From: Candidatus Woesebacteria bacterium UBA1430
GTDB lineage: Bacteria; Patescibacteriota; Microgenomatia; UBA8517
DNA: 64,000 nt
Direction of reading: 5' to 3'
Assembly (NCBI GenBank): GCA_002329465.1
Contig: DCTW01000004.1
Span: forward strand, 66,933 to 130,932
The notes beneath the pieces were generated by a model. The model was given only the letters and a program-made list of their open reading frames with translations. It had not been told where the DNA came from and did no database searches. The position numbers and the translations under genes are program-made. Of this stretch, positions 727-59,588 are shown one piece after another. Within the stretch, counting starts at the first letter, position 1, and every line of letters begins with the position of its first letter.

Positions 727-1116
727 CTAATTATAATCAAAAAACCTCTCCAAAATCAACGAGGCAGAATATGCATCCAAAAAATTTCTCCTTTTTTTCC
801 TACTCTTTCCGGCTTTAATAGCCTTATCCAAAGCCTCAACACTACTTAAAGTCTCATCAACAAGATGAACTTTTTTACCGCTTTTACGCTTTAGTAAATT
901 AGCAAACTCCCTTTGTTTCACACTCATCTCGCCCTCGGATACGCCCACCACAATCTCATCAATTTTTTTTTCTTTTATAATTCCTGTTATCTTTGCGATA
1001 AGCTCTAAATCATCTTTATGCTCCAACACGCAATAAGGCTCTCCAAACTTCCCAAAAGACAAAGCCACACCCGTTCTTTTCTTACCATAATCAATGCCCA
1101 AATAATTTCTCATCAT
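727..1116 (-). CDS. ruvX: Holliday-junction resolvase-like nuclease YqgF/RuvX
   Basis: N-terminal LGIDYGKKRTGVALS motif, about 130 aa, C-terminal DAYSASLILERF. ATGATGA overlap with the sortase stop. Confidence 0.85.
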   Translation of the reverse strand: MMRNYLGIDYGKKRTGVALSFGKFGEPYCVLEHKDDLELIAKITGIIKEKKIDEIVVGVSEGEMSVKQREFANLLKRKSGKKVHLVDETLSSVEALDKAIKAGKSRKKRRNFLDAYSASLILERFFDYN

Positions 1117-1781
1117 ATCCTCTCGCCAAAAGGAACAACTCTTGCACGCACAATCAATCTTTTAGGACGAAGCGGATGCCCAGGCGGCACGCAGGTTACA
1201 AGCGTTAAAAACGAATCGCTTGTATTCTGCTCAAGTATCTGAATGTCAGTAGGCAGCACCTCAAACGAACTTTCCACTTTATATTCATAAGTAATCCCGT
1301 CATGTTCAATAAAAATAGAATCATTCTTCTTAATAGTAGGTAAGGTCGAAAATATTGTAAGATAATCCTCGGGATTAAAAAATTGCGGAAGCACCGAATG
1401 CCCAAATACCACGGCATTGCCACGCCTACCCGGATAAGCAGTGCCTGGATACTGTACCAACGACTTAGACAAATCCTCCCCGCCTATCGAAACAGTTGCA
1501 TTCTTTATGTCCAATGAAGGTATTGATAAAGTATAATATTTAGCACTTGCTTCATCAAAATTCGTTTCTTTCAAGGGCAACCAGTTGCTTGCTTTTGTAA
1601 AATCGACAGCTTGCCTGCTAGGTTCAAGGCCCTGTCCTTCAGGAACCGGAGACAAATAAGTAGGATATTTTAAACTACTTACTATCTCATAAGAAAAAAT
1701 AGGATATAAAACATAAAAAAGCAAACCAATCCCGGATAAAAAAGACACTATTCCCAAAAACCTTATTGACTTTTTCTTCAT
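1113..1781 (-). CDS. Sortase family transpeptidase with N-terminal TM anchor
   Basis: Catalytic His (VVFGHS), Cys in TLVTC (FLTLVTCVPPG) and Arg (RLIVRAR). The track start at 1787 is TTG; the ATG is at 1781, 2 nt after the orf728 stop. Confidence 0.85.
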   Translation of the reverse strand: MKKKSIRFLGIVSFLSGIGLLFYVLYPIFSYEIVSSLKYPTYLSPVPEGQGLEPSRQAVDFTKASNWLPLKETNFDEASAKYYTLSIPSLDIKNATVSIGGEDLSKSLVQYPGTAYPGRRGNAVVFGHSVLPQFFNPEDYLTIFSTLPTIKKNDSIFIEHDGITYEYKVESSFEVLPTDIQILEQNTSDSFLTLVTCVPPGHPLRPKRLIVRARVVPFGERI

Positions 1782-1783
1782 CT

Positions 1784-3970
1784 TCAAACATTTCTATCGG
1801 CTATTGTCTCTATATTTATATTCTTATGCATCCTTGGGATAACTCCAAAAATCCAAGGAAATTTGTACTTTACACTAATCTCGGAACGCGTAAACCCGGG
1901 TATCGTCTCCAAATATTCATTAACCCTATCAAAACTTTTACCGGCTATATTTTTCTTTATCTCATCAGGTTCCACTCGCGGAAGAAGATTTGCTTTAATA
2001 GTAACATCAAAATCCCAATAAGAAGACCCAGAGCCTTGAAAAGAATAACTTATATTAAGCTGTTCCTCTTTCAAAGTATATCCCTCAGGCACTTGAGACT
2101 CAAGCCGTCTTTTTGAGAGCTCATTCATAGCGCTCTTTGAAATTACCAGTCCTTCAAGCTTCAGAGTCATCAATAGCTCCACGCTCCCGCTCTCCTCTCC
2201 CACCTCGTGACTATACTCTTCTGACACAATTTCGTACTCAAAAGCCTCGTCCTCTTCAATAAAAATCTTATCTTTCCCTATTTGTCCACTAATTTTATCC
2301 ATACCCTGTTTTTTAAGCTCATCTATAAGATCCTCCTTTAACTTATCGATATCGTCTTGTGATACCGCCACAATATCTTTGCTCGAGCCACCGCTGAAAT
2401 CTTCTTTCGCCACAGCATCAACCTCGCTTTTGGGATAATTACCAACCGAAAAAGATTCGTCTTTTGCAAGATTGTATTCTGCGCCAATATCTTCTGCAGT
2501 AACATTTATATCATCAGTTCCGGGTGACGAGGGACTCTCGGCAGCAGAAACCGACGCCGACTCGTCCAAACTAAACTTTAGTTCTCCCGGGCCAACCAAA
2601 ACAGTCCCCTCAGAAAGCTTAATAGAGGATGAGGTTCCGTTTCTAACTATTACAACACCCTTTGCCTTATCGCCAACCGTCTTAGTCCCGCTTGCATCTT
2701 TTGTTTTTTCTCCGCTAACCTCAACGGTTACAATCTCGGCAGGCAACAAAAATTCATCATAATTAGCCTGAGCCAAATCCTTCTCAAAAGTAACGCCGAC
2801 ACTCTCTGAAAGAAGCTTTGGAGAAACAAAAACAACAACATTAGCCTTCGGCAAAAACCACCAAGCCGCAAAGAACCCTATAATACCCAAAACCAATACA
2901 ATAAATAAAATCCTGCCAAAACCTCCAAAAGGCAGCACCTTCCTAGGAAAACTTCGGAATCTTAAAACAGGTTTTCTAAACCTCGGCAAATGGATAAAAC
3001 CTGCAACTCTTTTTAAAAAACCCTTTTTCTTTTCAGGCACATACTCCTGCTCCGCACCCGCTTCTTCAGGCTCAACAGTTGTTTTTTTTATTTTCGATAC
3101 ATCACCACCAAAAACAAATCCTACATCCCGTGGATCAACCGAGTTTATTTCGGAAAAATTCATCTCATTGCTGCCTTCAACATCCTCCTCGGCTTGTAAA
3201 TTCTCATTCTCTTCATTTTCCGCTTTCGCAAGACCTTCTATCTCTCCGAATTCGGATGCTCCTGCAAGACAAACCGCTGTTAATTTTTTCTCTGGAGGAA
3301 ATATCTCAATCTTAGGAGTATGTAAAAATTTCACTTTACCCGCACTCTTTTCAGACCAATCTACATCAATAATAAGCTGCCTTGCTTCCTCAAGCTCGGC
3401 TTCTTTTCCATTGTAAATAATTATTCTTGAAGGAAAATTCTCGCCTGTATAAAACCTTGCAAGCCCCTCGATAACATCATCTGCAAAAGAAACACTTCTT
3501 CCGATATTTACAGTACCTGCAATATTTCCAAGCTTAAACAAAGTTACATCAAGCATTTCCTTGCCATAACCGATTACAATCCCGGAAAACGGTGTTCCCT
3601 CATCAAGCTTAATCGCATGAGAAATTGCCTCTGGTAAAACCACAAAACCCGATGGCTCCAAAGAAAGTTTCGAACACACCTCTTTTATCTTCTCCAAATA
3701 CTCTTTTTTAATCTGCCCATCAGAAACCCAAAAAGGAGCCACACCAAAAACAGTCTTACTTGGCTCAATCAATTCTTCTGGATAATTCTGTGAAGCGGAC
3801 GAAAGCGCTGAATTACATGCCTCAACAAGCTCGGTATCATCACCCCAGGCAACAGAAGAACTAGTAATCATTACTTTTGCCCGCCTTTCTTCTATTGTCC
3901 AAATTGCAGCTTGAACCCACCCTGGTTCAATTACAAGCGACCAATAATATTCTTGTTTTTTGCTATCCAT
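1784..3970 (-). CDS. Hypothetical 728-aa bitopic envelope protein: N-terminal degenerate actin/FtsA/PilM-like region, acidic linker, one TM (ILFIVLVLGIIGFFAAWWFLP), large extracytoplasmic C-terminal domain
   Basis: Long uninterrupted ORF. The N-terminus WSLVIEPGWVQAAIW...GIVIGYGKEMLDVTLFKLG...VNIGRSV resembles FtsA/PilM strand patterns, but the phosphate-binding Asp/Gly motifs are replaced. The fold assignment is inference only. Confidence 0.6.
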   Translation of the reverse strand: MDSKKQEYYWSLVIEPGWVQAAIWTIEERRAKVMITSSSVAWGDDTELVEACNSALSSASQNYPEELIEPSKTVFGVAPFWVSDGQIKKEYLEKIKEVCSKLSLEPSGFVVLPEAISHAIKLDEGTPFSGIVIGYGKEMLDVTLFKLGNIAGTVNIGRSVSFADDVIEGLARFYTGENFPSRIIIYNGKEAELEEARQLIIDVDWSEKSAGKVKFLHTPKIEIFPPEKKLTAVCLAGASEFGEIEGLAKAENEENENLQAEEDVEGSNEMNFSEINSVDPRDVGFVFGGDVSKIKKTTVEPEEAGAEQEYVPEKKKGFLKRVAGFIHLPRFRKPVLRFRSFPRKVLPFGGFGRILFIVLVLGIIGFFAAWWFLPKANVVVFVSPKLLSESVGVTFEKDLAQANYDEFLLPAEIVTVEVSGEKTKDASGTKTVGDKAKGVVIVRNGTSSSIKLSEGTVLVGPGELKFSLDESASVSAAESPSSPGTDDINVTAEDIGAEYNLAKDESFSVGNYPKSEVDAVAKEDFSGGSSKDIVAVSQDDIDKLKEDLIDELKKQGMDKISGQIGKDKIFIEEDEAFEYEIVSEEYSHEVGEESGSVELLMTLKLEGLVISKSAMNELSKRRLESQVPEGYTLKEEQLNISYSFQGSGSSYWDFDVTIKANLLPRVEPDEIKKNIAGKSFDRVNEYLETIPGFTRSEISVKYKFPWIFGVIPRMHKNINIETIADRNV

Positions 3971-22093: not shown

Positions 22094-23824
22094 TCAAAAT
22101 TCCGTATTATCCTTTGCAGAAGGGGATACTGTTTCGGATTCTCGAAGAGGTGGAGAAGATATCTTTTTTCTCCTTTTAATAAGGCTTGTTAAAGTAAACA
22201 GTTCCTGCGATTTCAGTAAATAACTTGCCAAAAAGTAAAAAACACCACCCACAAAAAAGGTTACCAAAGTAAGAATTAATAAATTTGTAGTATATCGGGT
22301 ATCCAATACAAATTTCTCAAAATCAAGTCTTTTATGCGCATCCAAACTCCCCAAAAAAGACAGTCGCTTAACCCAAACCGATCTATCAAAAAACTTGAGA
22401 ATAAAGTACATCACTCCGCTTGATACCAAACTTGAAACAACCGTCTTGAAAAAAGGATATAAATTTATCAAAACTCCACCGTTTATCCTATTGCTCAATA
22501 TATAAAAAAGTACAATGGATTGAACAATTACCCCCGACGAAAAGGATGCGGACAGTGCCCAAGTTGGAAGGTCTAAAAGCAGTATCCCGATAAAAGAAAA
22601 AATAATTGCAATTGTCGTACCAATAAGAGAAATAAAAACAGGAGTTTTTGTGTCATTTAGCGCATAAAACGCCCTATTAAGAAGCATTACGGCAGCTTGA
22701 AAAGGAACTCCCAATGCAAAAGCGGATAAAACAAGCCCTGTCTGTACAGTAGCCTCCCAATCAAAAATATCCGTGCCAAATAACAATCTGACAATTGGTA
22801 TTCGAAACACAATCAACCCACCCGCGATAGGCATCACTAAAAAAACCACCTGATACAAAGTCGAGAGAAAAGTGCTTTTAAATCTGGCGAGATCATCCGA
22901 CTGACTGGTCAGAGTAGGAAGCGCAGCTTTTGCCAAACTCACGCCAAAAAGTCCCACAGGTATAAGTTGCACGGAATTTGCAAGAGTGTAATAAGTATAC
23001 GATGCGGTAGAAATAAGAGAGGCCAAAAAAAGCTCTACAGTTTTCGAAATCTGCAAAACCGAAAGCTCAAATATCCTAGGCATCGCAAGCCTACCAATCT
23101 TTTTTACTTCTTTTGTAGGTCTTAACGAAATCTCAAACCTAAACCCAAGCTTATATGACAAAGGAAGCTGTATTAAAAAGTGAGCAAATGCACCCATAAG
23201 TACGCCCAGCGAAGGAGCAAGAAGATGAAATCTGCTCGAAAAAAGCACGGTTCCCGCTATAATTCCGAGATTATAAAAAAGAGGAGCCAGCGCCGGGATC
23301 AAAAATCGTCTTAATGACTCCAAAACTCCGGTTAAAACATAGCTAATTACAAAAAACCCCTGAGCGGCAAACAAAACTCGTGCCAAATATCCAATCTTCT
23401 CCGTTTGCTCTGAACTAAACCCTGGAGCCACTATCCTATATAAATCTTCGGCAAATATACCAAACACTATGGATATCAGGGCAAATATCAAAAGCCCAAG
23501 ATTAAGCATCCTTCCAGCAGTTTTCCAAGCAAGCTGCTGATCTTTCTTAAAAAGTTTTGTAAAAACAGGTATAAAAGCACTAGATAAGGTACCCAGCGTA
23601 AGCACCTCAAACACAAGGTCGGGAAATCTAAACGCAGCAAAAAAAAGGCTAAGCTCATCCGGAACAAAAAAACTCAAAAGCACCCTTTGTCTAACTAACC
23701 CCAAAATCTTTGAAAAGACAATCATCACCATAATAATGCTCGCGGCAGAAAGTATCGAAGTCTGCTCAGAAAAAATAAGTCTTTTACCCCTCAAAACAAT
23801 TCCTCTTGGTATTTTTATTATCAT
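22094..23824 (-). CDS. murJ: Lipid II flippase MurJ/MviN
   Basis: 576-aa polytopic protein. N-terminus AASIIMVMIVFSKILGLVRQRVLLSFFG-like, FRFPDLVFE, and the MOP-superfamily pattern throughout. Confidence 0.88.
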   Translation of the reverse strand: MIIKIPRGIVLRGKRLIFSEQTSILSAASIIMVMIVFSKILGLVRQRVLLSFFVPDELSLFFAAFRFPDLVFEVLTLGTLSSAFIPVFTKLFKKDQQLAWKTAGRMLNLGLLIFALISIVFGIFAEDLYRIVAPGFSSEQTEKIGYLARVLFAAQGFFVISYVLTGVLESLRRFLIPALAPLFYNLGIIAGTVLFSSRFHLLAPSLGVLMGAFAHFLIQLPLSYKLGFRFEISLRPTKEVKKIGRLAMPRIFELSVLQISKTVELFLASLISTASYTYYTLANSVQLIPVGLFGVSLAKAALPTLTSQSDDLARFKSTFLSTLYQVVFLVMPIAGGLIVFRIPIVRLLFGTDIFDWEATVQTGLVLSAFALGVPFQAAVMLLNRAFYALNDTKTPVFISLIGTTIAIIFSFIGILLLDLPTWALSASFSSGVIVQSIVLFYILSNRINGGVLINLYPFFKTVVSSLVSSGVMYFILKFFDRSVWVKRLSFLGSLDAHKRLDFEKFVLDTRYTTNLLILTLVTFFVGGVFYFLASYLLKSQELFTLTSLIKRRKKISSPPLRESETVSPSAKDNTEF

Positions 23825-25463: not shown

Positions 25464-25791
25464 AAAAAACTCGCCCACCATAGTCAAGCTAGGAATTCTT
25501 ACTGTAATAACAACCTTTATCTGGATAGGTTTCGAGGTCTATAGAGCATTAAGTACCGAGCCCGAACCGATCGTATCCGAAGAAACACTCGCAAAAGTCG
25601 AACCAAACTTGGATACTAATGAAATGGACTCACTCCAACAAAGAATATACATAAACGAGGAAAACATAGCACCCATAAACATTGTTTCAAACACGCAAAC
25701 ATCACAAGAAGAACAAGAAGAAAATGCAGTTGAATCCGAAGAAGCAACAAATTCTGCACAAGAACAAATAGAGGAATCGGCAAATGAATAA
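25456..25791 (+). CDS. Small bitopic protein with acidic C-terminal tail, unknown function
   Basis: 111 aa with one TM (LGILTVITTFIWIGFEV). 8-nt overlaps with both neighbours, so it is co-translated with pilO and orf457. Confidence 0.45.
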   Translation: MNKKNSPTIVKLGILTVITTFIWIGFEVYRALSTEPEPIVSEETLAKVEPNLDTNEMDSLQQRIYINEENIAPINIVSNTQTSQEEQEENAVESEEATNSAQEQIEESANE

Positions 25792-27157
25792 ATCAAAAAT
25801 TCCCACAATATTAGGCATACTAATACTTATTACCGGAGTTGCCATGGGCGTTTTCATACTTCAGCAACAACAAACTTTTAAACTGGGGGCATCTCCCGAG
25901 GCATCTCCCAAAAACATAGAAATAACCAATATAACAAGCGAGTCATTTACAGTTTCCTGGACCACGGACAAAAAAACTGTAGGCTATCTCAAATGGGGCA
26001 AGGAAAAGCCTAGCGAAAATAACTCATATCAAGCCGAAAAAACGGCAAAAAACATACATCAAATATCACTTCACAACCTCGAGCCAAACACAAACTATTC
26101 CTTTATAATCAACTCGGACGGCAAAGACCACGATAACAACAATATTCCCTGGCAGGTAAAAACAGGCCCACCGCTTCCTCCTCCCCAAAAAACAAACATT
26201 ATCTCAGGAAAAGTCATACTTCCAACTGGACAACCCGCATCAAATACACTTATATATCTAAACGCAGCTGGTATATCACCGCTATCAACGCTAACCTCCT
26301 CAAATGGTGACTGGGTTATAGCAATATCAAACGCAAGATCAAACTCACTTAATTCATATGCGAACATCGATGAAAACACGCTTCTTGAAATTCTTGTTCA
26401 AGGAGGACCAAGTGGAATTGCCTCAGCACAAATTTATTTAAAAGCCGCAAATCCAACTCCACCGATAACCCTCGGGAAAATCCACGACTTTAGATCGGAA
26501 ACAGGAAACCCCCAAGAAGAAATCCCCGCATCGCAAATAAATCTTCCGGAGGAAACGGAAAAAGATATCGAATCAAAATTCGTCGTCCCGGAAGTTGAAA
26601 AAGAAGAAGAAACAAGCTCGGTTACCCTAGATAGCATCGAAGATAACGAAATAATATTCACAAACGACCCGGAATTCTTTGGAAAAGGCCCATCAGGAAA
26701 CTCAATTAAAATAACTGTTGAATCAGAACTCATAAGCGACGAGTTAACAATCCCCAGCTCGGGTGCATGGAAATGGAGCCCGCCTGAAAACTTGGAGCCC
26801 GGAGAGCACAAAATAACCCTCTCCTGGGTTGATAAAACAGGAATATTAAGAACACTCACAAGAACTTTTATAGTTCAAGCTGCGGAAAGCGAACCTGCAT
26901 TTGAATCTACACCGTCAGGCAACGAACCTTCGCCAACCCCCACCGTCAAACCAACGCAAACTCCCAAACCTACAGCAACAGCCACACCCGTATCTACAGC
27001 TACACCCAAAGCAACCGCCTCACCAACAAGTACCCCCAGAGTTAGTATCCCGTCAACCGATTCGGCTACGCCAATAGCAGGAAACCCCATACCAACAATA
27101 ATAATGCTTTCATTCGGAGCCGTATTTCTATTCTTAGGACTCTTTCTGGCAGTTTAA
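25784..27157 (+). CDS. Multidomain surface protein: signal anchor, FN3-like domain, CarboxypepD_reg-like domain, Ig-like domain, Pro/Thr-rich stalk, C-terminal sorting-signal-like TM
   Basis: ITNITSESFTVSWTTDKKTVGYLKWG...LEPNTNYSF (FN3), ISGKVILPTGQPASNTLIYLN...SSNGDWVI, a PTPTVKPTQTPKPTATATP stalk, and the end TPIAGNPIPTIIMLSFGAVFLFLGLFLAV. Confidence 0.7.
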   Translation: MNKSKIPTILGILILITGVAMGVFILQQQQTFKLGASPEASPKNIEITNITSESFTVSWTTDKKTVGYLKWGKEKPSENNSYQAEKTAKNIHQISLHNLEPNTNYSFIINSDGKDHDNNNIPWQVKTGPPLPPPQKTNIISGKVILPTGQPASNTLIYLNAAGISPLSTLTSSNGDWVIAISNARSNSLNSYANIDENTLLEILVQGGPSGIASAQIYLKAANPTPPITLGKIHDFRSETGNPQEEIPASQINLPEETEKDIESKFVVPEVEKEEETSSVTLDSIEDNEIIFTNDPEFFGKGPSGNSIKITVESELISDELTIPSSGAWKWSPPENLEPGEHKITLSWVDKTGILRTLTRTFIVQAAESEPAFESTPSGNEPSPTPTVKPTQTPKPTATATPVSTATPKATASPTSTPRVSIPSTDSATPIAGNPIPTIIMLSFGAVFLFLGLFLAV

Positions 27158-27184
27158 TCCCAAAAACCCAAAAACTTCAAAAAC

Positions 27185-29644
27185 TTATCGCCAAGACTCT
27201 ATCCAATAATAACTCTCATTAATCCATCGTGGAACAAAAATTCCTGTCCAGTGTGGATAAAAATACAAAAAAGCCAGCGCTCCAAGGAAAAAAAATACAA
27301 AAACATACTTAGGTCTCATTCGTAAAAAAACACCTATACCCATCGAAAGAAATGGAATAGAAGGCAAATAATGATAAAAAAACATTATTCTTGGGGAAAA
27401 AGCCCAAGGTACAAAAAACACTAAATAAGATAGCACAACAAATCCTAATCTTTTACTTTTAGTCCTAAACGAATAAAAAGAAAGGAAAGCAATACTTAAA
27501 AGCCCAAACCAAACAACAACAGGATTGCCCATCGCATAAATATTTGATACTAATCCAGAATCATTCGAACCCGTATAAAGCCAAACAGGCCTAATAAGCA
27601 AAGGCCAGCTCCACCATGGCGAAGTGTACGCGTGCTCCGCCTCCAAATTGGTGTGGTACCACCACATCTGCTTTTGCATGCCAGTAAATATACTAAAATC
27701 ATGTCCCGTCAAAAACATTGGGATGTAACTAGCAACATAAAGGGTAGCCGGAATCAATAAATACCAAAAATAACCTAAAGAAAATTTCTTTTTAAAAGAA
27801 AAGTGAGCAACGACAAGAAGCGGAAAAAACCAAAAAGCCGTCCATTTCGACGCTAAAGAAAATCCAAAAGCTAAAGATGAAAAAAAGTACTTTGATCTTA
27901 AAAACATATATAAACTCAAGAGCATAAAAAACAAAAAATAAATATCGTTCATCCCAATCCTGCTCATAACCAAAAACAGCCCCTCAAGCGAAAGCGCACC
28001 CACCGAAAAAAGCGCCGTCTTTCTATCCTTAAATATTTCATAAGAAATAAAATAAACCAGTATTCCCGCTCCGACCCCGAAAATAGCAGCAGGCACTCTA
28101 TAGCCATAAGAACTCTCACCCATAAAATGCATCCCCACGGCCATAATTTCCTTCGCCAACGGCGGGTGAGTCCATTCGTAAGCAAACCCTTCAGGGTGAG
28201 GGTTCCACCACTCCCAAGCCTTAGGATCACCATGAAGTATAAGCTTTGCAGTAAAAGCATGATAAATCTCATCAAAATACTCATGCTTCGGAAGGCCAAT
28301 CCCGTAAATTCTCGAGACCAAAAGAAACAAAGTCATCGCTATCAATACTCGCTTAGCCCTTCTTGAATCAAGATCCTTTCCCTTAAAAAGGGTAGTTTTT
28401 ACAGCTCCCCCGCGCTCTTTAAATAAGCCTGACAAATTCTTAACATCAAAGTCTCCAAAACTCTCCCTCATTAAAGAAAAAACAAAAAGGAAAATACTAC
28501 ACAACGAAAAAAGGATAATTGCGGGTGCATTAAACACCTCTCTAAAGCCGTCGGTTATCCAAACGTAAGAATAATAAAGGTTCACAACATATAAAAAAGA
28601 AAGCCCCACATAAACAATCATCAAAAAAGGGTTAAACGCAACGGCTATAAGCAAAGGGGCAATAACAGGCAAAAGATGTCTCTCGTGCATTCGTGTCATA
28701 AAAAGATATAAAGTAAAAAACACAATCGAAGCGTAATAATATTTATCTTTTTCAACCAGCAAAGAACTCCTCCTCCAAGCTTTATAAAAAATACCCGAAA
28801 GAATAATAAAACTAATAAAATAACCTATTAAAAAAGGAGGGATAATCCCGCTTGTGTCACTTTTCCAAAATCCAAAAATACTCCAAAAATTAATAGCGTT
28901 TACACTTGTATAAGGATACTGTCCCAAAGACAAAAACACCCGCCGAAAAACAAACTCAACCAAATTCCCCGATGAAAAGGGAATAAACATCATAAAGAAA
29001 AAAATAGCAGAAGATAAAATATATAAAAACATATTTTTAACTATCCATTTCTTCTTCCAAAAAACAAATAAAATAATGGGTAGGATAAACAAAGTCTGGG
29101 GTTTAACCAGCACTCCATAAGAAAACAAAACACTTGATACAAAAAACGAACTCTTATCTAAAAAGTACAAAGCTGCAATCGAAAAAAACGAAGTAAGCGA
29201 ATCCACCTGTCCCCACAAAGAAGAATTTGCAAAAACCGCCGGATTAAAAATATAAAAACTTGCGACGATTAAAGAAAAATTCTTACTTTTGTATCTTCTG
29301 ACGATTTTATAAATCAAATAACCGGTTGCTATATCGGCAATTATCGCAGGCAGTTTATAAATTAAATGGGGATCTAAAAAACTAAACCAAACGCTTATTT
29401 TTCCCAAAAAATAAAGCACATAAAGATATCCGGGCAAGTAATCAGACCAGCCGTTATAAAATTCGCTAAATCCATGCTCCGAAAGCGTTCTGCTCCAGGA
29501 AACAAAAGTATTAAAATCAAGCTCTAAAGTACCAAAAGGCGAAAGAAAAATTCTCAACAAAAACCCAACAGCAAGAAAAAATAATATTTCATATTCTAAT
29601 TTTTTCATTTTACTAACCATGGCTTTATACATAATATAACCCAT
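27185..29644 (-). CDS. Fused double GT-C glycosyltransferase: N-terminal DUF2029/PIG-V-like mannosyltransferase module plus C-terminal GT39 (PMT-type, polyprenyl-phosphate-sugar dependent) module
   Basis: The C-terminal half has YFDEIYHAFTA...WTHPPLAKEIMAVG...YRVPAAIFG...MSRIGMNDIY (bacterial Pmt pattern). The N-terminal half has about 11 TMs with WSDYLPGYLYVLY. The track start 29755 would overlap the receiver gene; in-frame Met codons lie at 29644, 29632, 29620 and 29608. Confidence 0.82.
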   Translation of the reverse strand: MGYIMYKAMVSKMKKLEYEILFFLAVGFLLRIFLSPFGTLELDFNTFVSWSRTLSEHGFSEFYNGWSDYLPGYLYVLYFLGKISVWFSFLDPHLIYKLPAIIADIATGYLIYKIVRRYKSKNFSLIVASFYIFNPAVFANSSLWGQVDSLTSFFSIAALYFLDKSSFFVSSVLFSYGVLVKPQTLFILPIILFVFWKKKWIVKNMFLYILSSAIFFFMMFIPFSSGNLVEFVFRRVFLSLGQYPYTSVNAINFWSIFGFWKSDTSGIIPPFLIGYFISFIILSGIFYKAWRRSSLLVEKDKYYYASIVFFTLYLFMTRMHERHLLPVIAPLLIAVAFNPFLMIVYVGLSFLYVVNLYYSYVWITDGFREVFNAPAIILFSLCSIFLFVFSLMRESFGDFDVKNLSGLFKERGGAVKTTLFKGKDLDSRRAKRVLIAMTLFLLVSRIYGIGLPKHEYFDEIYHAFTAKLILHGDPKAWEWWNPHPEGFAYEWTHPPLAKEIMAVGMHFMGESSYGYRVPAAIFGVGAGILVYFISYEIFKDRKTALFSVGALSLEGLFLVMSRIGMNDIYFLFFMLLSLYMFLRSKYFFSSLAFGFSLASKWTAFWFFPLLVVAHFSFKKKFSLGYFWYLLIPATLYVASYIPMFLTGHDFSIFTGMQKQMWWYHTNLEAEHAYTSPWWSWPLLIRPVWLYTGSNDSGLVSNIYAMGNPVVVWFGLLSIAFLSFYSFRTKSKRLGFVVLSYLVFFVPWAFSPRIMFFYHYLPSIPFLSMGIGVFLRMRPKYVFVFFFLGALAFLYFYPHWTGIFVPRWINESYYWIESWR

Positions 29645-29679
29645 ACTGACCACTTGGACTATATAATATAATAAATAAA

Positions 29680-30072
29680 GTGGACACAAACCCAAAAAAC
29701 CCAACGGTGTTAATAATAGAAGACGATCAAGCCCTGGCAAAAATGTATTCGACAAAATTCCAAATGGAAGGCTTCAACTCAATAGTTGCAAAAGACGGTA
29801 AAAGCGGTATGGATTTTCTAAATACAAAAAGCCCTGACGCGATACTTCTCGACATCATGCTTCCCGGATATTCGGGATTGGATCTTCTCTCAAGCCTCCA
29901 ATCAAACCCCAAAGCCAAAAATACTGTTATATTAGCGCTCACAAATCACCCTCAAAAAGAAAGCGCTCAAAAAGCACTAAACCTCGGAGTAAAAGAATAT
30001 CTTGTAAAAGCAATGCAAACACCCGAAGAAGTAGTAGAAAAAGTCAAAAAATACCTAAATCTTCCACAATGA
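29680..30072 (+). CDS. Stand-alone response-regulator receiver domain (CheY-like)
   Basis: VLIIEDD, phospho-acceptor context AILLDIMLPGYSG, ILALTN, EYLVKA. All five conserved receiver positions are present. GTG start. ATGA overlap with the next gene. Confidence 0.85.
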   Translation: MDTNPKNPTVLIIEDDQALAKMYSTKFQMEGFNSIVAKDGKSGMDFLNTKSPDAILLDIMLPGYSGLDLLSSLQSNPKAKNTVILALTNHPQKESAQKALNLGVKEYLVKAMQTPEEVVEKVKKYLNLPQ

Positions 30073-31226: not shown

Positions 31227-32608
31227 TACCTGCCTCTTTGGCGCTATATTCCTTAACTTTACTAAAAGACGTCGGCTTTTGGGACACGGCAGAATTCCAA
31301 ACCATCCTCTACACGCTCGACATCGCACACCCCACAGGCTACCCCACTTACATACTTTTAGGAAAACTGTTTCTTATTTTACTCCCGCTAAAAAATGTAG
31401 CACTTCAAATCAATTTTCTCTCAAGCATCCTTATATCTCTAGGATTATACTTTATTTCAAATTCAATATTCACAATCACCAAAAACAAATATGTCTCAAT
31501 ACTCACACCCTTTTTAATAATGACTTCCTCCGTTGTTTGGTCGCTCTCAACAGCTGCAGACCCTCACGCACTCCACTTTCTTTTTACATCTCTTTTTATA
31601 TATCTCTCCACCAAAATATTAATCCAAAATAGAACAAATTTTCTGCCAACTATTTTTCTTATTACAGGGCTATCGCTCGGAAATCACTTATTATCAATAT
31701 TTTTCTTATTGCCTCTTTTTTTAATTCTGGCAACAAAAGCCAAAAAAGCCCGGCCTTTTATAATAAAATCAATTCTTTTATTCTTTCTTGGTCTAAGCGT
31801 CTATGCGCTACTGCCGATAATTTCTTACTTTAAACCTCCCCTAACTACCGATTATTCTATAAACAGTCTTGATTCCTTTAGCCGCCACGTTTTCGGCAAA
31901 GATTTTAGTCCCCACTCCGGAAAATGGATCGGAGGAAGCGTGCTTTCAGCCCTTCAATTTTATTCGATTCAACTAAAACAATTTATCTCAATCGTTTTTC
32001 TGCCTCTTGCTTTAATTGGAATTGTCTCTCTTAAAAAAGAAAATCGCATTCTAAACTTTTCTCTATCATTTATTTTTCTCGGTACACTCCTTTTCAGCCT
32101 TAGATATCAAAACGCCGTTATAGAAAGATATTTCGCACCCTCTTTTGTTGTTATTCTTATCTGGATATCCTCATCAATCAACCCAATTTTACGTCTCTCT
32201 AAAAAATTCAAATTTATAGCTCTCCTTAGTTTTATACTTATTATCACAGTCCAAACAACAAAAAACATAAAAACAGTCTTTCCCTTAGTAAAACAAAACG
32301 GGTCAAACTCAGCGCGCACTTTTGCCGAAAAAACCATGGATCTGCTTCCGAAAAATTCGGCAATTATCTCTTGGTGGAGTTATTCTACACCGCTTTGGTA
32401 TCTACAAAAAGTCGAAGGAAAAAGGCAAGACGTTTTAATAATTAACGCGTCACAAAACGAATGGGAACAAATTGCGCTTAATCTTTATTCAAAAAAAGAA
32501 ATTTTCTTAATCAATTACATCGATCTTAAAAACCCTTCCTTTAAACTAATACACAAAGAGCACCTCTATCAATTTACTCCCCTGTCTTATGAGAATTCTC
32601 CCCAATAA
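31181..32608 (+). CDS. DUF2723 (TMEM260-like) GT-C glycosyltransferase
   Basis: GFWDTAEFQTILYTLDIAHPTGYPTYILLGKLF is the hallmark DUF2723 N-terminal loop. Polytopic, followed by a soluble C-terminal domain. Confidence 0.75.
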   Translation: MGSTVDKQIWLGILLIPASLALYSLTLLKDVGFWDTAEFQTILYTLDIAHPTGYPTYILLGKLFLILLPLKNVALQINFLSSILISLGLYFISNSIFTITKNKYVSILTPFLIMTSSVVWSLSTAADPHALHFLFTSLFIYLSTKILIQNRTNFLPTIFLITGLSLGNHLLSIFFLLPLFLILATKAKKARPFIIKSILLFFLGLSVYALLPIISYFKPPLTTDYSINSLDSFSRHVFGKDFSPHSGKWIGGSVLSALQFYSIQLKQFISIVFLPLALIGIVSLKKENRILNFSLSFIFLGTLLFSLRYQNAVIERYFAPSFVVILIWISSSINPILRLSKKFKFIALLSFILIITVQTTKNIKTVFPLVKQNGSNSARTFAEKTMDLLPKNSAIISWWSYSTPLWYLQKVEGKRQDVLIINASQNEWEQIALNLYSKKEIFLINYIDLKNPSFKLIHKEHLYQFTPLSYENSPQ

Positions 32609-33686
32609 TCTTGCCAACCCACTCATGCATTCCGCTCCAATCTCCAGCGATGGGAACTAAAACATACAAATTATTATAATCAGAAAATGGCGGGTTTTTA
32701 AGTAAACTTTCCTCAAAATCATGCATCTTTATCTTATCCCTAAAATCATAAGCTTTCCGCGCCAAAAAAACCTGGGCATATTCATCCATATCAGTCTCCG
32801 AAATAGATTTTATTAAATCCCAAAAACCAAAAAGTTTCCGCGGATGATACAAAAAATCACGACTTACTAACTTATCTTTAATCGCCACCATCACAAGCTG
32901 TGCACGTCTTGTCCTTGCAAAATCAGTGCCTTCTTCCAAATCCTCCGAATGCCTCGAACGCACATACTTTAAAGCAGTACCTCCATCCATGGTTGTCAGC
33001 CCTTTTTCAAACCTTATCGTCTCATACCGGCAAGCATACTCAGGGTCTCCATCACACAAATCTTCCCCTCTCCCCTCGATGGGATATTTTTTATCTTCAA
33101 AGCTCCTTGGTACGTCAACTTCCACCCCACCCAAATAATCAACGACCTCTTTAAATCCGTCAAAATTCATAGAAAAACCGTAATGAATAGGTATTCCCAA
33201 TATCTCCTCAACATAAGACTTGGCAAGAACAATTCCACCACCCGCCCTTCTTTCATTACCTATGCGATAAGCTCCATTAAGCTTGTCTCCAAGCTCCTCA
33301 ATCCATATATCACGAGGAACAGGTATTAAATCCACGCCAGAGCCGTAAATATCAAAAGAAGCAACTATCATAGTATCTGATAAAATTGGATTTTTTTCTC
33401 CGTCACCCGATAAGCCGAGAAAAAGCAAATTAGTTCTTCCGTCTGTAGATTTTACTTTTTTATTACTTGCAAAAATAAATGTAAAGCCCAATTCAGCGTA
33501 TTTATAATAACCGCTGAATTTCAGAAAAAAAACACCCACAGCCACAAAAAGGCTCAAAAAAACAAATATAGATAAAAAAACGCCGAAACGAACAAACAAA
33601 ATATGTCTTGCCAAAATTCTTCTTTTTACTCTCGCCAAAAACCTTTTCCTTCTCTCTGATAAAAATTTATGCCTTCTTTTTTCCAT
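32574..33686 (-). CDS. LytR-CpsA-Psr (LCP) family glycopolymer-to-peptidoglycan phosphotransferase
   Basis: N-terminal TM; TNLLFLGLSG...SDTMIVASFD...VDLIPVPRDIWI; RSRH...DFARTRRAQ. The ATG is at 33686 (the track start 33710 is TTG). The 3' end overlaps the DUF2723 gene convergently by 35 nt. Confidence 0.85.
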   Translation of the reverse strand: MEKRRHKFLSERRKRFLARVKRRILARHILFVRFGVFLSIFVFLSLFVAVGVFFLKFSGYYKYAELGFTFIFASNKKVKSTDGRTNLLFLGLSGDGEKNPILSDTMIVASFDIYGSGVDLIPVPRDIWIEELGDKLNGAYRIGNERRAGGGIVLAKSYVEEILGIPIHYGFSMNFDGFKEVVDYLGGVEVDVPRSFEDKKYPIEGRGEDLCDGDPEYACRYETIRFEKGLTTMDGGTALKYVRSRHSEDLEEGTDFARTRRAQLVMVAIKDKLVSRDFLYHPRKLFGFWDLIKSISETDMDEYAQVFLARKAYDFRDKIKMHDFEESLLKNPPFSDYNNLYVLVPIAGDWSGMHEWVGKIIGENSHKTGE

Positions 33687-33742
33687 GTTAGAATAAGTCT
33701 TGCAAAACAAAAACGCTTTTAATTATTGTATTTTATACCAAA

Positions 33743-35605: not shown

Positions 35606-35616
35606 AAAATTAATGC

Positions 35617-35625: not shown

Positions 35626-35631
35626 AAGCTC

Positions 35632-44958: not shown

Positions 44959-45001
44959 GTTGAAGACAGCAAAACAACTGGATATACTGAAATAAAGACA
45001 A

Positions 45002-46498: not shown

Positions 46499-46552
46499 TC
46501 CATAATAATTGCCACAATTAAAACCAATACGCTAAAATAGGTAAACCTGTTT

Positions 46553-46903: not shown

Positions 46904-47967
46904 TGATAATAGATATTTTTTTTATCCCTTTTCTATTGGCCACCGTCATATCTCTCTTGTCCACATATCCGACAATTAAATTGGCATGGAAGCTAAATCT
47001 TATCGACGATCCCCAAAAGAACAAACATCCCAAAGTTATCCATAAAATCAAAACTCCGCGAGGAGGCGGTCTGGCAATATTTATATCAATCCTGCTTACA
47101 AGCTTAATTTTCCTGCCACTCGACAAACATCTCAAAGGAATTATCTGTGGGGCAACAATTCTAACAGCACTGGGCCTGCTCGACGACAAATATAATCTAA
47201 ACCCGTATCTAAGACTGATAGTACAATTTACAGCCGCAAGCATGCCAATTATAGCCGGAATAGGCATCGCCTTTTGGAAAAGCCCTTTCGGCAATATAAT
47301 TGATCTTTCACAACCCCAAATAAATCTATTTCTTTTAGGAGAAACAAGATCAATCTGGATTCTATCTGATTTATTTGCGCTTTTCTGGATCGTAGCTATT
47401 ATGAATTTTCTGAACATGGGAGCTAAAGGCGTTGACGGCCAGCTAACCGGAGTTGTTGCAATCGCGGCACTAACAATAAGCCTGCTTTCGCTTAAATTTT
47501 CAGCAGATATCACCGAATGGCATACAACCACTCTCGGCGCAATTACCTTCGGAAGCTTTTTAGGTTTCTTACCTTGGCACATCTATCCTCAAAAAATAAT
47601 GCCAAGCTTCTCTGGGTCGAACCTTGGAGGCTATATGCTTGCAATTCTTTCAATTCTTACAACAGCAAAAGTAGGAACACTTGCATTAGTTCTCGCAGTG
47701 CCGCTTGTAGATACTACATATATAATAATCAGACGAGTTCTTTCTGGTAAATCACCTGTCTGGGGTGACAATAGGCATTTGCACCACAAACTTCTAGAAA
47801 GCGGCCTAAGCATTAAACAAGTTGCCGCCTTCTATTGGGCTGTAACGGCTGTCTTCGGAATACTCTCGCTGTTTTTGAACTCGGAAAATAAACTGTATAC
47901 TATGATAGGAGTAGCCCTCCTTACAGGAGGAATTACCTTATGGCTAAATCACAAACAAAAACAATAA
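46903..47967 (+). CDS. Polyprenyl-phosphate HexNAc-1-phosphate transferase (MraY/WecA/TagO family, GT4)
   Basis: LIDDPQKNKHPKVIHKIKTPRGGG, LGLLDDKYNLNP, NFLNMGAKGVDGQ; 10-11 TMs. Confidence 0.85.
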   Translation: MIIDIFFIPFLLATVISLLSTYPTIKLAWKLNLIDDPQKNKHPKVIHKIKTPRGGGLAIFISILLTSLIFLPLDKHLKGIICGATILTALGLLDDKYNLNPYLRLIVQFTAASMPIIAGIGIAFWKSPFGNIIDLSQPQINLFLLGETRSIWILSDLFALFWIVAIMNFLNMGAKGVDGQLTGVVAIAALTISLLSLKFSADITEWHTTTLGAITFGSFLGFLPWHIYPQKIMPSFSGSNLGGYMLAILSILTTAKVGTLALVLAVPLVDTTYIIIRRVLSGKSPVWGDNRHLHHKLLESGLSIKQVAAFYWAVTAVFGILSLFLNSENKLYTMIGVALLTGGITLWLNHKQKQ

Positions 47968-48887
47968 TAGGCATCATAAAAATTTCCAGACCCATCCACT
48001 GGGTTAAAAATTTCGGAATTTTCGCAGCACTTATATTTTCAAACAATCTCTTTAACAAGCCCATGTTTATCAAAACTTTCTGGGGATTTTGGATATTCAA
48101 CGTCGCGGCAAGCGCAACCTACACATTCAACGATATTCTCGATGCAAAAAGAGACCGCCTCCACCCAATCAAAAAGGAAAGACCAATAGCAAAAGGGGAT
48201 ATTAAACCCCAAACCGCACTTTTTCTTTCTGGAATACTTGCGCTAATATCACTCACCAGCGCACTTTATCTCTCTGAAATATTTTTCTTACTAATCCTTG
48301 CTTATCTATTAATTCAGATTTCGTATTCGCTCTTTCTCAAAAGCCTCCATGTTATAGACATTCTGATTATCGCAACAGGCTTTATTATTCGAGTATATTC
48401 TGGCGCTTTTCTTATTAATGCTCACTTATCCGTATGGTTCTTGTTGTGTGTAATCTCGGTAGCACTTTTTCTCGCATCAGGTAAAAGAAGAGCAGAGCTA
48501 AGCATAATGGGTAGATCAGCAAAAACAAGGCAAAGCCTTTCAAAATACAGCCCCGAGCTTCTAAATTCCTACGTTACAATGTTTGGTAACGCTGCGTGGA
48601 TGAGCTGGGCTCTTTTTTCATTTTTTGAATCTCCACAAGCATCGCTTCCTCTGTGGCTAATCTTGGCCGAATTTTCAAAAACCACAACGGTAAACAAATT
48701 AATGATGATAACAATACCCATTGCAATCTTCGGCATTATGCGGTACGAAAGCTTAATATTCGAAGGCAAATCCGAAACTCCTGAAAAACTTCTTCTCTCG
48801 GATAAATCGCTCATCGCCTCTGTGGCAATATGGGTTGCAATTATAATTTGGATTCTTTACGGCAACATCGCGGCCTATTCGGCCTAA
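47940..48887 (+). CDS. UbiA-family prenyltransferase resembling decaprenyl-phosphate phosphoribosyltransferase (DPPR synthase)
   Basis: SRPIHWVKNFGIFAALIF, NDILDAKRDRLHPIKKERPIAKG (NDxxDxxxD). AGGAGG SD 10 nt upstream, inside the wecA-like 3' end. Confidence 0.78.
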   Translation: MAKSQTKTIIGIIKISRPIHWVKNFGIFAALIFSNNLFNKPMFIKTFWGFWIFNVAASATYTFNDILDAKRDRLHPIKKERPIAKGDIKPQTALFLSGILALISLTSALYLSEIFFLLILAYLLIQISYSLFLKSLHVIDILIIATGFIIRVYSGAFLINAHLSVWFLLCVISVALFLASGKRRAELSIMGRSAKTRQSLSKYSPELLNSYVTMFGNAAWMSWALFSFFESPQASLPLWLILAEFSKTTTVNKLMMITIPIAIFGIMRYESLIFEGKSETPEKLLLSDKSLIASVAIWVAIIIWILYGNIAAYSA

Positions 48888-49738
48888 TCATCGGCGATTT
48901 CTGCCGATTCTGTGGCATATTCCGAAGATATCCAACCTTCAATTCCCTCGTCAAATTTAATCTTATACCATCCGGCAACGCTATCGCGATCCAAAAGCTC
49001 ATACTTTTCACCCGGATCAACCCTTCCAACCTCTTCAGAACTGGTAGAGGGCTCCTCCCTCACTCTTAAAAACCCGGTAGGAGTATTAAGTATTTCAACT
49101 TCTAGTGGGGAAGAGGGCCAAGAATTGTTAATTTCTTCCAAAACATCACTTTGTGCATTTTCATCTTTTTCTAAATCAACCAAAGCTGTCAAAGTATATC
49201 CAGAATAGGCATTAACCGAAAAAGCTCTTTCAAAATAGCCGTCCAAAAAAAGTCTAATTTCATGAACACCCTCTGAAACATCTTCAATTAATAAAGGAGT
49301 TAGATCAACTATCCTGTCATCAAAATAAACTTGCGCACCGTCTGGTCTCGAAATAACGGAAACATTTGCATTTTTCCCACCTGTTTTTTCAAAAGATATC
49401 TCTTCGCCGGAAGAATCCTCCACCGACTCCCCAAGTTTGCGTCGCACAATAGTTTTAACACCACGAACTAACTCTATTTTAGTATCATATGCCATTAAAG
49501 GCTTATCCAAAGCCTCCGGTACAAGCCTAACCGCTACCTCTCGTGCCGCAAACTCTCTCTCAAAAGGAGTCCTACCCACCTGTTCACCGTTAATATATAC
49601 CTGTGCAACAGGGTCAGATTCAATTAATAAAGAGGCTTTCCTATTTTTATGGTAAAACCAAACCCCAAAAGACAGAAAAAAAACCAATAATATAAAAAAA
49701 AACAAAAAAAATATTTTTTTTCTAGAGGTCACGTTCAA
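48884..49738 (-). CDS. Membrane-anchored PEGA-repeat / SH3b-domain wall-associated protein
   Basis: N-terminal TM; two PEGA-like units (ESDPVAQVYINGEQVGRTP; SRPDGAQVYFDDRIVDLTP); C-terminal SH3b (LRVREEPSTSSEEVGRVDPGEKYELL...GWYKIKF...GWISSEY). Confidence 0.7.
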   Translation of the reverse strand: MNVTSRKKIFFLFFFILLVFFLSFGVWFYHKNRKASLLIESDPVAQVYINGEQVGRTPFEREFAAREVAVRLVPEALDKPLMAYDTKIELVRGVKTIVRRKLGESVEDSSGEEISFEKTGGKNANVSVISRPDGAQVYFDDRIVDLTPLLIEDVSEGVHEIRLFLDGYFERAFSVNAYSGYTLTALVDLEKDENAQSDVLEEINNSWPSSPLEVEILNTPTGFLRVREEPSTSSEEVGRVDPGEKYELLDRDSVAGWYKIKFDEGIEGWISSEYATESAEIADD

Positions 49739-58219: not shown

Positions 58220-59059
58220 ATGGATCAACCTGTCCAAGATAATAACGCATCATCTACAAATCCACAAAACGGACCGATATTTACACCCAATCCGGAAGCA
58301 ACACAACCATCCACCGATTCCACGACCGCTCCCCAAAGCCCGCCCCAACAAAATAGCGATCCTGTCAACATAGTAACATCAGAACCACCACAATCAGGCA
58401 ACGGAAACGGCAAAAAGGCTATATTTGCAATAGCAGGAATTACGGTTTTAATAACAGGTCTTGTTACAGGAGTCTTCCTTATAGGAAGAACCAACCTCAG
58501 AAAAAGCAGCGCGTGGGATTGTAGTGGCTATACTTTTAAACTGGAAAAAACAGGAGAAGTTATAGCAAGCAATCTTTCTGCCTATAACGAACCTCCCCAA
58601 CAAGCAAGAGTTATTATAAATTCCCAAGAAGTAGCAGTTTTTGATGTACCGGCATTAGCCTCGGGAGACACAGCCTCTCTCGGTAATGTTCAACCTCCAA
58701 CTGGTAGCTATAGCTGGGAAATAGTAGGCACTGTTGACTGCAGCAATTCAGGCTCCCACGAACAAGAAATTACGGCACGATGCGAAATCATCAAAGCATA
58801 CGACACCGAAGGCAACCTTCTCAACTTGGACGAGCTAAGCGCACTTCCAGGGGGAAGTACGGTAAGATTTACTGTTTTGGGAAGTACAAGCGAAGGAATT
58901 TTTGATAAAGCAAAATTTATCATTAACGACAGCCCACAAGAAGTAACTAATAAAAACGAATCTGGCGAATTCTACATAGATTACCAAATTCCCGAAGGCA
59001 CAAACACCATAAAAGTTGATGCCCAAGTCCACCACTCGACACTAGACAATTGGTACTAA
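58220..59059 (+). CDS. Bitopic surface protein: Q/P/T-rich N-terminus, one TM, Cys-containing beta-rich ectodomain
   Basis: ORF; TM at AIFAIAGITVLITGLVTGVFLIG; four Cys in the ectodomain. Confidence 0.55.
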   Translation: MDQPVQDNNASSTNPQNGPIFTPNPEATQPSTDSTTAPQSPPQQNSDPVNIVTSEPPQSGNGNGKKAIFAIAGITVLITGLVTGVFLIGRTNLRKSSAWDCSGYTFKLEKTGEVIASNLSAYNEPPQQARVIINSQEVAVFDVPALASGDTASLGNVQPPTGSYSWEIVGTVDCSNSGSHEQEITARCEIIKAYDTEGNLLNLDELSALPGGSTVRFTVLGSTSEGIFDKAKFIINDSPQEVTNKNESGEFYIDYQIPEGTNTIKVDAQVHHSTLDNWY

Positions 59060-59060
59060 T

Positions 59061-59588
59061 ATGAAATATATAAAACAAAACTTATTTACAATCTTAATAG
59101 TATTAGCAACAGTTATTCTTGCCGTTATTGCCGTATTTACAGCTATAAAACTCTATACAGGCGAGCAAAAACCACAAGCTCCGACAGCGCCGCAAAGCGT
59201 TCCTGAAGCAAAAGTAGAAACACAAAACACCCAATGCCAATCGCTGGTATTTACTCTGTCAACCCCCACAGCCACTCCAACAGCTACTCCCGAGGCAACA
59301 CCAAGCCCATCAGCCACACCAAAAGAAACCTCTACACCGTCTCCTACGCCGACATCTACACCCGAAGAAACATCTACTCCGTCACCGTCTCCTACTCCTA
59401 CTTCTACATCAACGCCGTCAGGAACATCAACTCCCGCGCCGACATCTACACCCACAGATACGCCGGCAACCGCGACTCCCACACCCACCCAAGAAGCCAT
59501 GCCGGCTGCTGGCGTAGCATTACCAACGATTATCGGAGTAAGCGCGGGTGTAATTCTAATCCTTGGAGCACTTCTCTTGGCTCTATAA
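59061..59588 (+). CDS. Thr/Pro-rich stalk surface protein with signal anchor and C-terminal sorting-signal-like TM
   Basis: N-terminal TM, about 80 residues of (T/S/A/E)P repeats, and the end MPAAGVALPTIIGVSAGVILILGALLLAL. Confidence 0.6.
   Translation: MKYIKQNLFTILIVLATVILAVIAVFTAIKLYTGEQKPQAPTAPQSVPEAKVETQNTQCQSLVFTLSTPTATPTATPEATPSPSATPKETSTPSPTPTSTPEETSTPSPSPTPTSTSTPSGTSTPAPTSTPTDTPATATPTPTQEAMPAAGVALPTIIGVSAGVILILGALLLAL

Follow-up and report, generated by a model that had tools for sequence, protein, structure and literature searches.

A conserved C-terminal module resembling a sortase signal in surface proteins of a Woesebacteria pilN–pilO gene cluster

Why should two surface proteins with unrelated ectodomains end in the same 29-residue arrangement? 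The question is raised by a stretch of 64,000 nucleotides (hereafter the window) from Candidatus Woesebacteria bacterium UBA1430 (assembly GCA_002329465.1, contig DCTW01000004.1, positions 66,933 to 130,932). Its genome context, at 39% G+C, is that of the Woesebacteria/Microgenomates within the Candidate Phyla Radiation (CPR). Two open reading frames (ORFs) of its forward strand are at issue: 59061..59588, which encodes a protein of 175 residues (W175), and 25784..27157, which encodes one of 457 residues (W457). Their last 29 residues are MPAAGVALPTIIGVSAGVILILGALLLAL and TPIAGNPIPTIIMLSFGAVFLFLGLFLAV, respectively. An earlier note, made from the letters of the window, had proposed that this ending is a recurrent, lineage-specific module with the tripartite layout of a sorting signal, and the tails of homologues bear the proposal out. 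We argue that the module is probably a cell-wall sorting signal, in which case a sortase would cleave after the fourth position of a pentapeptide and transfer the protein to peptidoglycan.

The two tails of the window

The translations and C-termini of both ORFs are exactly as the earlier note gave them. The two tails align without gaps, with 12 identities in 29 positions and a BLOSUM62 score of 53. For the tails of the other 287 window ORFs of at least 60 residues the mean score is −27.6, with a standard deviation of 10.9, and the runner-up scores 10; the same ending is absent from all of them. A score of 53 was reached neither in 20,000 shuffles of the whole tail nor in 20,000 shuffles in which the motif and helix parts were permuted separately. 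Since both the shuffles and the background of ORF tails lie so far below 53, we reject a chance or low-complexity origin of the match. Recent gene conversion between the two tails is rejected as well, because they are only about 50% identical as DNA.

In W175 the module (59499..59585, forward strand) consists of the pentapeptide MPAAG (59499–59513), the residues VAL, the dipeptide PT (59523–59528) and a 19-residue helix that runs to the stop codon. In W457 (27068..27154, forward strand) it consists of TPIAG (27068–27082), NPI, PT and a helix, again up to the stop. In both, 24 residues follow the glycine, none of them lysine or arginine, and the hydrophobic segment from PT to the C-terminus measures 21 residues.

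What precedes the module? The N-terminal hydrophobic anchor and the T/P/S/A-rich spacer that had been claimed for both proteins are indeed present. Each begins with a lysine-rich N-terminus followed by a hydrophobic stretch of 20–23 residues, which qualifies as a secretion signal without implying cleavage. W175 is a bitopic surface protein with its anchor at nucleotides 59082–59147 and its spacer at 59259–59498. W457 is more elaborate: behind the anchor come an fn3-like domain, a second β-sandwich, an acidic linker, a Big_13 Ig-like domain and a T/P-rich spacer (26885–27067), with Pfam matches to fn3, Pur_ac_phosph_N and Big_13. An AlphaFold 2 (AF2) model of W457 has helices at residues 6–27 and 436–456, the latter with a predicted local distance difference test (pLDDT) score of 81–94, and is disordered between residues 368 and 428. 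A fold search with this model returned generic tandem-fn3 matches only. By inspection neither N-terminus carries the G−1/E+5 motif, and a class III pilin-type signal was rejected.

Is W175, with its low-complexity middle, a real gene? To answer this we compared it with its 93%-identical counterpart in Ca. Woesebacteria Ch104b (CP055307.1). The base differences fall mostly at third codon positions (22 of 34), and of the codon changes 20 are synonymous and 11 non-synonymous; the N-terminus and the tail differ only by an exchange of valine for isoleucine. We conclude that W175 is a real gene whose coding frame is under purifying selection.

The module in related genomes

Does the pentapeptide belong with the helix? 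We used a DNA pattern that describes the helix alone and is blind to the pentapeptide (P-T-x2-G-x3-G-[IV]-[IL]-L-x2-G-[AS]-x-L-x-[AV]-x-stop). It has one match in the window, where none is expected, and 49 matches in 47 metagenome loci, where about zero are expected by chance. Many of the loci come from the 0.1-µm fractions of Hainich groundwater. In all 36 distinct scorable tails a pentapeptide stands exactly three residues before PT. It reads LPEAG in 15, LPDAG in eight, LPPAG in three and LPNAG in two; LPSAG, LPAAG, LPGAG, LPTAG, LPNTG, MPAAG, VPESG and IADAG occur once each. Thirty-three of the 36 are thus of the LPxAG type, LPNTG being counted with them, and the exceptions are MPAAG, VPESG and IADAG. 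A profile of three tails found two loci among genome contigs. A profile of seven tails found no match at E ≤ 10 in a set of 5.8 billion proteins, the query being too short and compositionally biased.

A second sample was drawn without regard to the tail, by a phmmer search with the first 70 residues of W175 against 1.84 billion representatives. It yielded 207 representatives at E ≤ 1e-3. The tail is found in 126 of the best 150, and most of those without it are fragments or near misses. In 103 of the 126 the glycine is followed by exactly 24 residues, PT stands at +4/+5 in 101, and lysine or arginine occurs in just five. Counts by position were made on 112 registered tails. Position 1 is L in 107. 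Positions 2 and 5 are P and G, respectively, in all 112, counts that are partly set by the register filter, which demanded P or A at the former and G at the latter. Position 4 is A in 82, S in 23 and T in five, so that these three account for 110 of the 112. Beyond the pentapeptide, position 9 is P in 108, position 10 T in 101, position 17 G in 99, position 24 S, A or G in 110, position 27 L in 97, position 28 A in 89 and position 29 L or F in 101. The conserved helix positions 10, 17, 24 and 28 share one face of the helix.

The family so defined is large and belongs to the Microgenomates. Its members are 105–512 residues long, with a variable middle that is T/P-rich or Cys-rich. The N-terminal anchor (…LAGVAIFTAIRLYQLRQQAVAPTAPESKP…C.ALTF) is strongly conserved, and since Pro follows an AVA-like site in it, it probably escapes cleavage by signal peptidase I. 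As a separate observation, the anchor together with the juxtamembrane stretch (…AIFTAIRLYQLRQQAVAPTAPESKP…C.ALTF; 59061–59270 in the window, and loci L003–L049) is more conserved than the ectodomain; this N-terminal stretch holds a single conserved Cys followed by a β-strand-like motif.

How do the relatives of W457 end? Among 8,000 candidates scored, 612 are homologues at E ≤ 0.001, and the named ones are Woesebacteria, Microgenomates or Patescibacteria. In 121 C-termini the pentapeptide resolves to [ILVT]-P-[DEV]-[SA]-G, followed by three residues, P-T and a hydrophobic stretch. P is present in 103 of the 121, and S (69) or A (40) occupies position 4 in 109. The glycine of this set was fixed by the anchor of the regular expression, but G433 is independently invariant in a MAFFT alignment of 60 sequences, in which P430, G433 and T438 show little or no variation, although they lie in a T/P-rich linker that is disordered in the AF2 model. 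Past the hydrophobic stretch, 111 of the 121 have an end that bears lysine or arginine (for example …WKKSEI), while a minority, the window copy included, lack a basic end and have a tail like that of W175. By their sequences, most W457 orthologues carry what reads as a classical tripartite sortase signal in which A or S replaces T.

The same ending is carried by unrelated ectodomains: the fn3/Big_13 protein W457, the W175 family, cohesin-domain proteins and a 279-residue protein of locus L054 that ends in VPETG plus 24 residues. Locus L054 (8088–8927, 5055–6383) holds in one cluster three tail-bearing proteins, with the pentapeptides PESG, VPETG and LPNAG, the end being charged (…FAKDID) in one of them and uncharged in the other two. 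Charged and uncharged tails are therefore presumably handled within the same cell.

We conclude from these alignments that the tail is a conserved, portable module of the Microgenomates/Woesebacteria, readable as L-P-x-[A/S/T]-G, three residues, P-T and a 19-residue helix to the stop. The earlier note had called the motif non-LPXTG, which the homologues do not support: judged by them, x-P-x-A-G is L-P-x-[A/S/T]-G in degenerate form, and canonical LPNTG and VPETG also occur. On its sequence the tail is best read as a variant of LPXTG and not as a separate class, the two window copies (MPAAG and TPIAG) being degenerate at position 1.

Comparison with known sorting signals

If the module is a variant of LPXTG, how far does it depart from the type? 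No sorting-signal model of NCBIfam or Pfam matches the window proteins at E ≤ 1. The consensus tail scores 13.4 bits against TIGR01167 (cutoff 15.9), and a cohesin-family member scores 12.7 bits against PF00746 (cutoff 20); both matches are in register and below threshold. Among curated sorting-signal models those for LPXTG anchors alone touch the tail, bar one sub-threshold match to PEP-CTERM.

The likeness to the class A LPXTG and LPX(A/S)G proteins of Firmicutes is extensive. It comprises an N-terminal export signal, a spacer rich in Pro and Thr that spans the wall, a pentapeptide in which L, P and G are fixed, a following C-terminal hydrophobic segment, a sortase in the genome and, in most W457 orthologues, a basic tail. 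Even A or S at position 4 is a documented variant, LPX(A/S)G occurring occasionally in place of LPXTG in Staphylococcus aureus (two proteins) and in Streptococcus uberis (PMC3436756, PMC2657157). The differences are as plain. In the module A or S is the rule at position 4 (105 of 112, with T in five of 112); a conserved P-T is added at +4/+5, together with a helix of fixed length and conserved face; neither the window copies nor 121 of the 126 W175-family members have a basic tail; the scores stay below both curated thresholds, and that of the sortase below every class cutoff. Three features of the module are genuinely unusual: it lacks a basic tail, the remainder after the glycine has a fixed length of 24 residues and a conserved helix face, and the known carriers are confined to a pilN–pilO cluster.

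Might another enzyme process the tail, its resemblance to LPXTG being convergent? The candidates would be exosortase-, archaeosortase- or rhombosortase-like. In style the module, a compact domain of fixed length that can be defined by a hidden Markov model, does recall PEP-CTERM, PGF-CTERM and GlyGly-CTERM. With the pairs PEP-CTERM/exosortase, PGF-CTERM/archaeosortase A and GlyGly-CTERM/rhombosortase, and with IPTL-CTERM, it shares a short, lineage-restricted conserved C-terminal motif plus helix, borne by varied surface proteins that are often of low complexity or glycosylated. Several multi-pass membrane proteins (orf385, orf498) are also encoded nearby. However, those domains belong to other enzyme families, have other motifs and normally end in a basic cluster. 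The models for PEP-CTERM, PGF-CTERM, GlyGly-CTERM and IPTL-CTERM match neither the window proteins nor the consensus type-B tails at E ≤ 10, and the one sub-threshold PEP-CTERM match falls on a type-A tail. A scan of unannotated membrane proteins, which covered part of the window ORFs, revealed no exosortase, archaeosortase or rhomboid, and orf385 weakly matches a glycosyltransferase family. We regard processing by such an enzyme as very improbable.

The literature searched (CPR, Patescibacteria, Microgenomates, Saccharibacteria) contained no description of CPR sortase substrates or of their recognition motif. What is new here is the motif LPx[A/S]G-x3-PT with a 19-residue uncharged helix, matched by no curated model. 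It can serve as a search model for surface proteins of the Microgenomates/Woesebacteria.

The sortase

Is there an enzyme that could read such a signal? The complete sortase that had been claimed at 1113..1781 is confirmed by Pfam. The gene (1113..1787, reverse strand, with an ATG at 1781) encodes a membrane-anchored protein that matches PF04203 with 80.6 bits (cutoff 26.6). Its catalytic triad, H129 (VVFGHS), C198 (LTLVTC) and R213 (RLIVRA), is intact, invariant in 16 homologues, and aligns to structures of class C sortases. The general sortase_fam model is passed (55.6 bits against 39.35), whereas none of the class models is reached: class C scores 56.7 (cutoff 160), class E 46.9 (160) and class D 44.2 (165). 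The best match in the PDB is 24rr, a class C pilus-assembly entry (E = 1e-11). An AF2 model built from the 16 close homologues was poor (pLDDT 60) and was used neither for a fold search nor for class assignment.

Homologues 57–67% identical are found over many assemblies, and their context is always alaS – orf~740 – sortase – ruvX – mltG(YceG) – rpoB. This is a housekeeping context, not one linked to substrates. According to Méheust et al. this sortase family is found in nearly all Microgenomates (PMC6744442). The expected co-occurrence of tail and sortase was found: the sortase and a W457 homologue lie on one contig in the window and in two other assemblies, namely on JBFOMY010000007.1, where they are about 25 kb apart, and on a 91-kb JGI contig. 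In the sequence examined this conserved sortase has no other evident substrates.

Immediately upstream lies orf728 (1784..3970, reverse strand), a bitopic protein gene whose stop overlaps the start of the sortase gene, an adjacency that is kept in other Microgenomates. Its sole match is a borderline one to Baseplate_J (21.9 bits); neither the single sequence nor a three-sequence profile matched a PDB sequence, and no NCBIfam model matched. The protein may be a partner of the sortase. In each of the related assemblies examined, the sortase is preceded by a homologue of about 730–750 residues that has a hydrophobic stretch in mid-sequence (L050, 7744–9978; L051, 7760–9982).

The class C matches raise the question of the acceptor. 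Might the tail be a sortase signal that serves to join these proteins to another protein, or to polymerize them in the manner of a class C pilus sortase, and not to attach them to peptidoglycan? In NCBIfam and in the PDB the enzyme matches class C pilus-assembly sortases best, and several tail-bearing proteins stand together in one cluster. But the class C score is far under its cutoff and close to the scores for classes E and D, and the sortase sits in its housekeeping context, away from the substrates. Nor was a conserved pilin-motif lysine found: the candidate, K of …ESKP… in the W175 family, was rejected, being missing in several members, the window protein among them. Ligation of protein to protein seems to us improbable.

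The pilN–pilO cluster

Where, then, are the substrates encoded? In the window pilN (24212–24784), pilO (24798–25463) and orf111 (25456–25791) lie directly upstream of W457 on the same strand, orf111 overlapping it. The Pfam matches to PilN (2.8e-12) and PilO (2.6e-6) identify pilN–pilO–orf111 as a type IV pilus alignment-complex operon. This order is kept in loci from many assemblies. Mapping the window proteins onto related loci gave the conserved sequence murJ (reverse strand), rpsT, pilN, pilO, orf111, a W457-like gene, further genes, an orf279-like gene, a W175-like gene and, convergent with it, a gene for a glycosyltransferase family 39 protein O-mannosyltransferase (GT39 PMT); beyond the latter come a GT-C-like gene, a LytR-CpsA-Psr (LCP) gene, uvrD and FemAB genes. 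Since both lie in this one conserved order, the genes for W457 and W175 are ancestral neighbours within a single pilN–pilO cluster.

The pair orf279–W175 (58220–59588) lies about 31 kb from the block pilN–pilO–W457–PMT (24212–29755), both in the window and in Ch104b. In almost all other loci pair and block are contiguous, and the displacement is therefore a lineage-specific rearrangement. The partner gene, orf279 (58220..59059, forward strand), stands immediately upstream of W175, a pairing kept in nearly all related loci. Its C-terminal domain of about 95 residues (residues 185–279; 58772–59056) has one or two further copies per locus (L043, L030, L038, L047, L022) and is also found fused inside some W175-family proteins; the surface proteins of the cluster are therefore domain mosaics.

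Does the cell have a wall to which such proteins could be tied? MurJ, a lipid II flippase (22094..23824, reverse strand), an LCP family protein (32574..33710, reverse strand; also beside the cluster in L053 and L054) and two FemAB-family genes (35632–36576 and 36576–37406, forward strand; in the same position in L054), which are builders of peptidoglycan cross-bridges, are encoded around the cluster. They point to a wall of the Gram-positive type, with cross-bridges to which sorted proteins could be joined. The peptidoglycan cross-bridge is the usual acceptor of sortases.

Sorting signal or permanent anchor?

We infer the following course of events for the sorting signal. The proteins would be exported through Sec and held by their N-terminal anchors, the T/P-rich spacer would span the wall, possibly O-mannosylated by the neighbouring GT39 enzyme, and the C-terminal helix would prevent release from the membrane. 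The one conserved sortase of the Microgenomates/Woesebacteria would then cut between position 4 (A, S or T) and the glycine, and would transfer the protein to the lipid II cross-bridge made by the FemAB homologues. The role would be to tie surface proteins associated with the pilus platform to the wall. This role is likely because the substrates come mainly from one pilN–pilO-linked cluster.

Several observations weigh against such sorting. In staphylococci a positively charged tail is among the defining elements of the sorting signal and is necessary for its function; the window copies and 121 of the 126 W175-family tails lack it. The 306 kb of tail loci contain no sortase gene, either within the cluster or in its vicinity. 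Position 1 of the window pentapeptides is M or T, as against L in 107 of 112 tails of the W175 family. The N-terminal anchors look uncleaved, judging by the Pro after the AVA-like site, and may retain the proteins in the membrane anyway. The helix, too, seems more elaborate than a retention peptide needs to be, with its fixed length (24 residues after G in 103 of 126) and its face of small residues (T10, G17, S/A24, A28); these features fit a permanent helix–helix contact equally well.

Is the tail, then, an uncleaved C-terminal membrane anchor or assembly module? In that case its helix face would pack against some other pilus-platform membrane protein, be it PilN, PilO, orf111 or a second carrier of the tail, and LPxAG-x3-PT would be a juxtamembrane docking element. 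The heptad spacing of the small-residue stripe, the fixed length without a basic tail, the confident AF2 helix that begins at PT, the location in the pilN–pilO cluster of every carrier whose context is known and the absence of a sortase from that cluster all speak for it. But the most conserved positions, L1, P2 and G5, lie outside the helix, in the T/P-rich linker that is disordered in the W457 model. They spell a sortase pentapeptide, whose fourth residue is T in some members. The classical signal is complete, K/R included, in most W457 orthologues, the module is portable across unrelated ectodomains, and the conserved sortase would be left without evident substrates in the sequence examined. 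On balance we consider a permanent anchor unlikely, if far from negligible, and retain the cell-wall sorting signal as the probable function.

Could both sets of features be accommodated at once? The Microgenomates sortase might be a dedicated enzyme that reads its substrates partly inside the membrane, through the uncharged helix face of fixed length, and that ties the proteins of the pilN–pilO cluster, N-terminally anchored in the membrane and possibly O-mannosylated, to peptidoglycan. The product would be a wall-spanning tether of the type IV pilus platform that replaces PilQ-type components in cells lacking an outer membrane. We put this forward as speculation and think it rather doubtful. 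If true, in-membrane recognition and the pilus tether would amount to a new class of sortase and signal and to a new component of monoderm type IV pili. If the module functions as a sorting signal at all, it would be a natural sortase signal without the charged tail that is held to be essential in staphylococci.

A possible link to O-glycosylation

What might the neighbouring glycosyltransferase contribute? That the window holds a GT39 PMT-like gene, as the earlier note stated, is confirmed by Pfam. The gene (27185..29755, reverse strand) is convergent with W457, and its product, a homologue of protein O-mannosyltransferases, scores 47.5 bits against PMT, 51.9 against PMT_2 and 55.6 against PMT_4TMC, all above the cutoff. 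In most relatives the PMT gene is convergent with a W175-like gene rather than with W457. Of the 48 tail loci L002–L049, 35 have a homologue, and many of the remaining loci are short contigs; the tail gene usually adjoins a GT39 PMT gene.

From this adjacency and from the composition of the spacers, sorting may be coupled to O-glycosylation of the T/P-rich regions. The adjacency sits, however, in a block whose whole gene order is conserved, from murJ to uvrD, and because the whole block is syntenic it is weak evidence of functional coupling. T/P-rich spacers are also the ordinary wall-spanning regions of sortase substrates.

Two known systems invite comparison. In Actinobacteria, as here, a GT39 enzyme with PMT, PMT_2 and PMT_4TMC matches is found beside genes for Sec-exported proteins with Thr/Pro-rich stretches; Pmt of Mycobacterium tuberculosis is reportedly an example of such O-mannosylation of proteins. 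The difference is that here the adjacency lies within a syntenic block and that W175 of the window is 31 kb from the PMT gene. The second is the GspA/SrtA/LCP system of Actinomyces oris (Wu et al. 2014, cited in PMC11623550), in which the housekeeping sortase reportedly anchors a glycosylated surface protein, so that glycosylation is tied to sorting at the membrane. Near the present cluster, too, there is an LCP gene. Glycosylation in A. oris is LCP-dependent, whereas the candidate here is the adjacent GT39 PMT-like enzyme. The clustering of the carriers with pilN–pilO and with a GT39 enzyme is new, and it offers a testable picture of how an ultra-small, episymbiont-like cell may build its surface.

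Other observations

The window contains two islands of envelope biogenesis. The first (22094–37406) encodes MurJ, PilN/O, the GT39 PMT, a response regulator, the GT-C-like orf385, a TMEM260-like GT-C protein, the LCP protein and the two FemAB proteins. The second (43477–49738) encodes a GT2 protein, a membrane protein of 498 residues, a GT4 protein (WecA/MraY-like), a UbiA prenyltransferase and a PEGA/SH3 protein.

In some Microgenomates rpoB and rpoC are fused, giving proteins of 2355 or 2337 residues (L050, 12328–19395; the 91-kb contig of JGI 3300071358), while in L051 they are separate. Lastly, locus L002 (CAZCXV010000006.1) comes from a metagenome-assembled genome labelled ‘uncultured Gammaproteobacteria’, yet it has the full Microgenomates synteny murJ–rpsT–pilN–pilO–…–PMT and is probably a mis-binned CPR contig.

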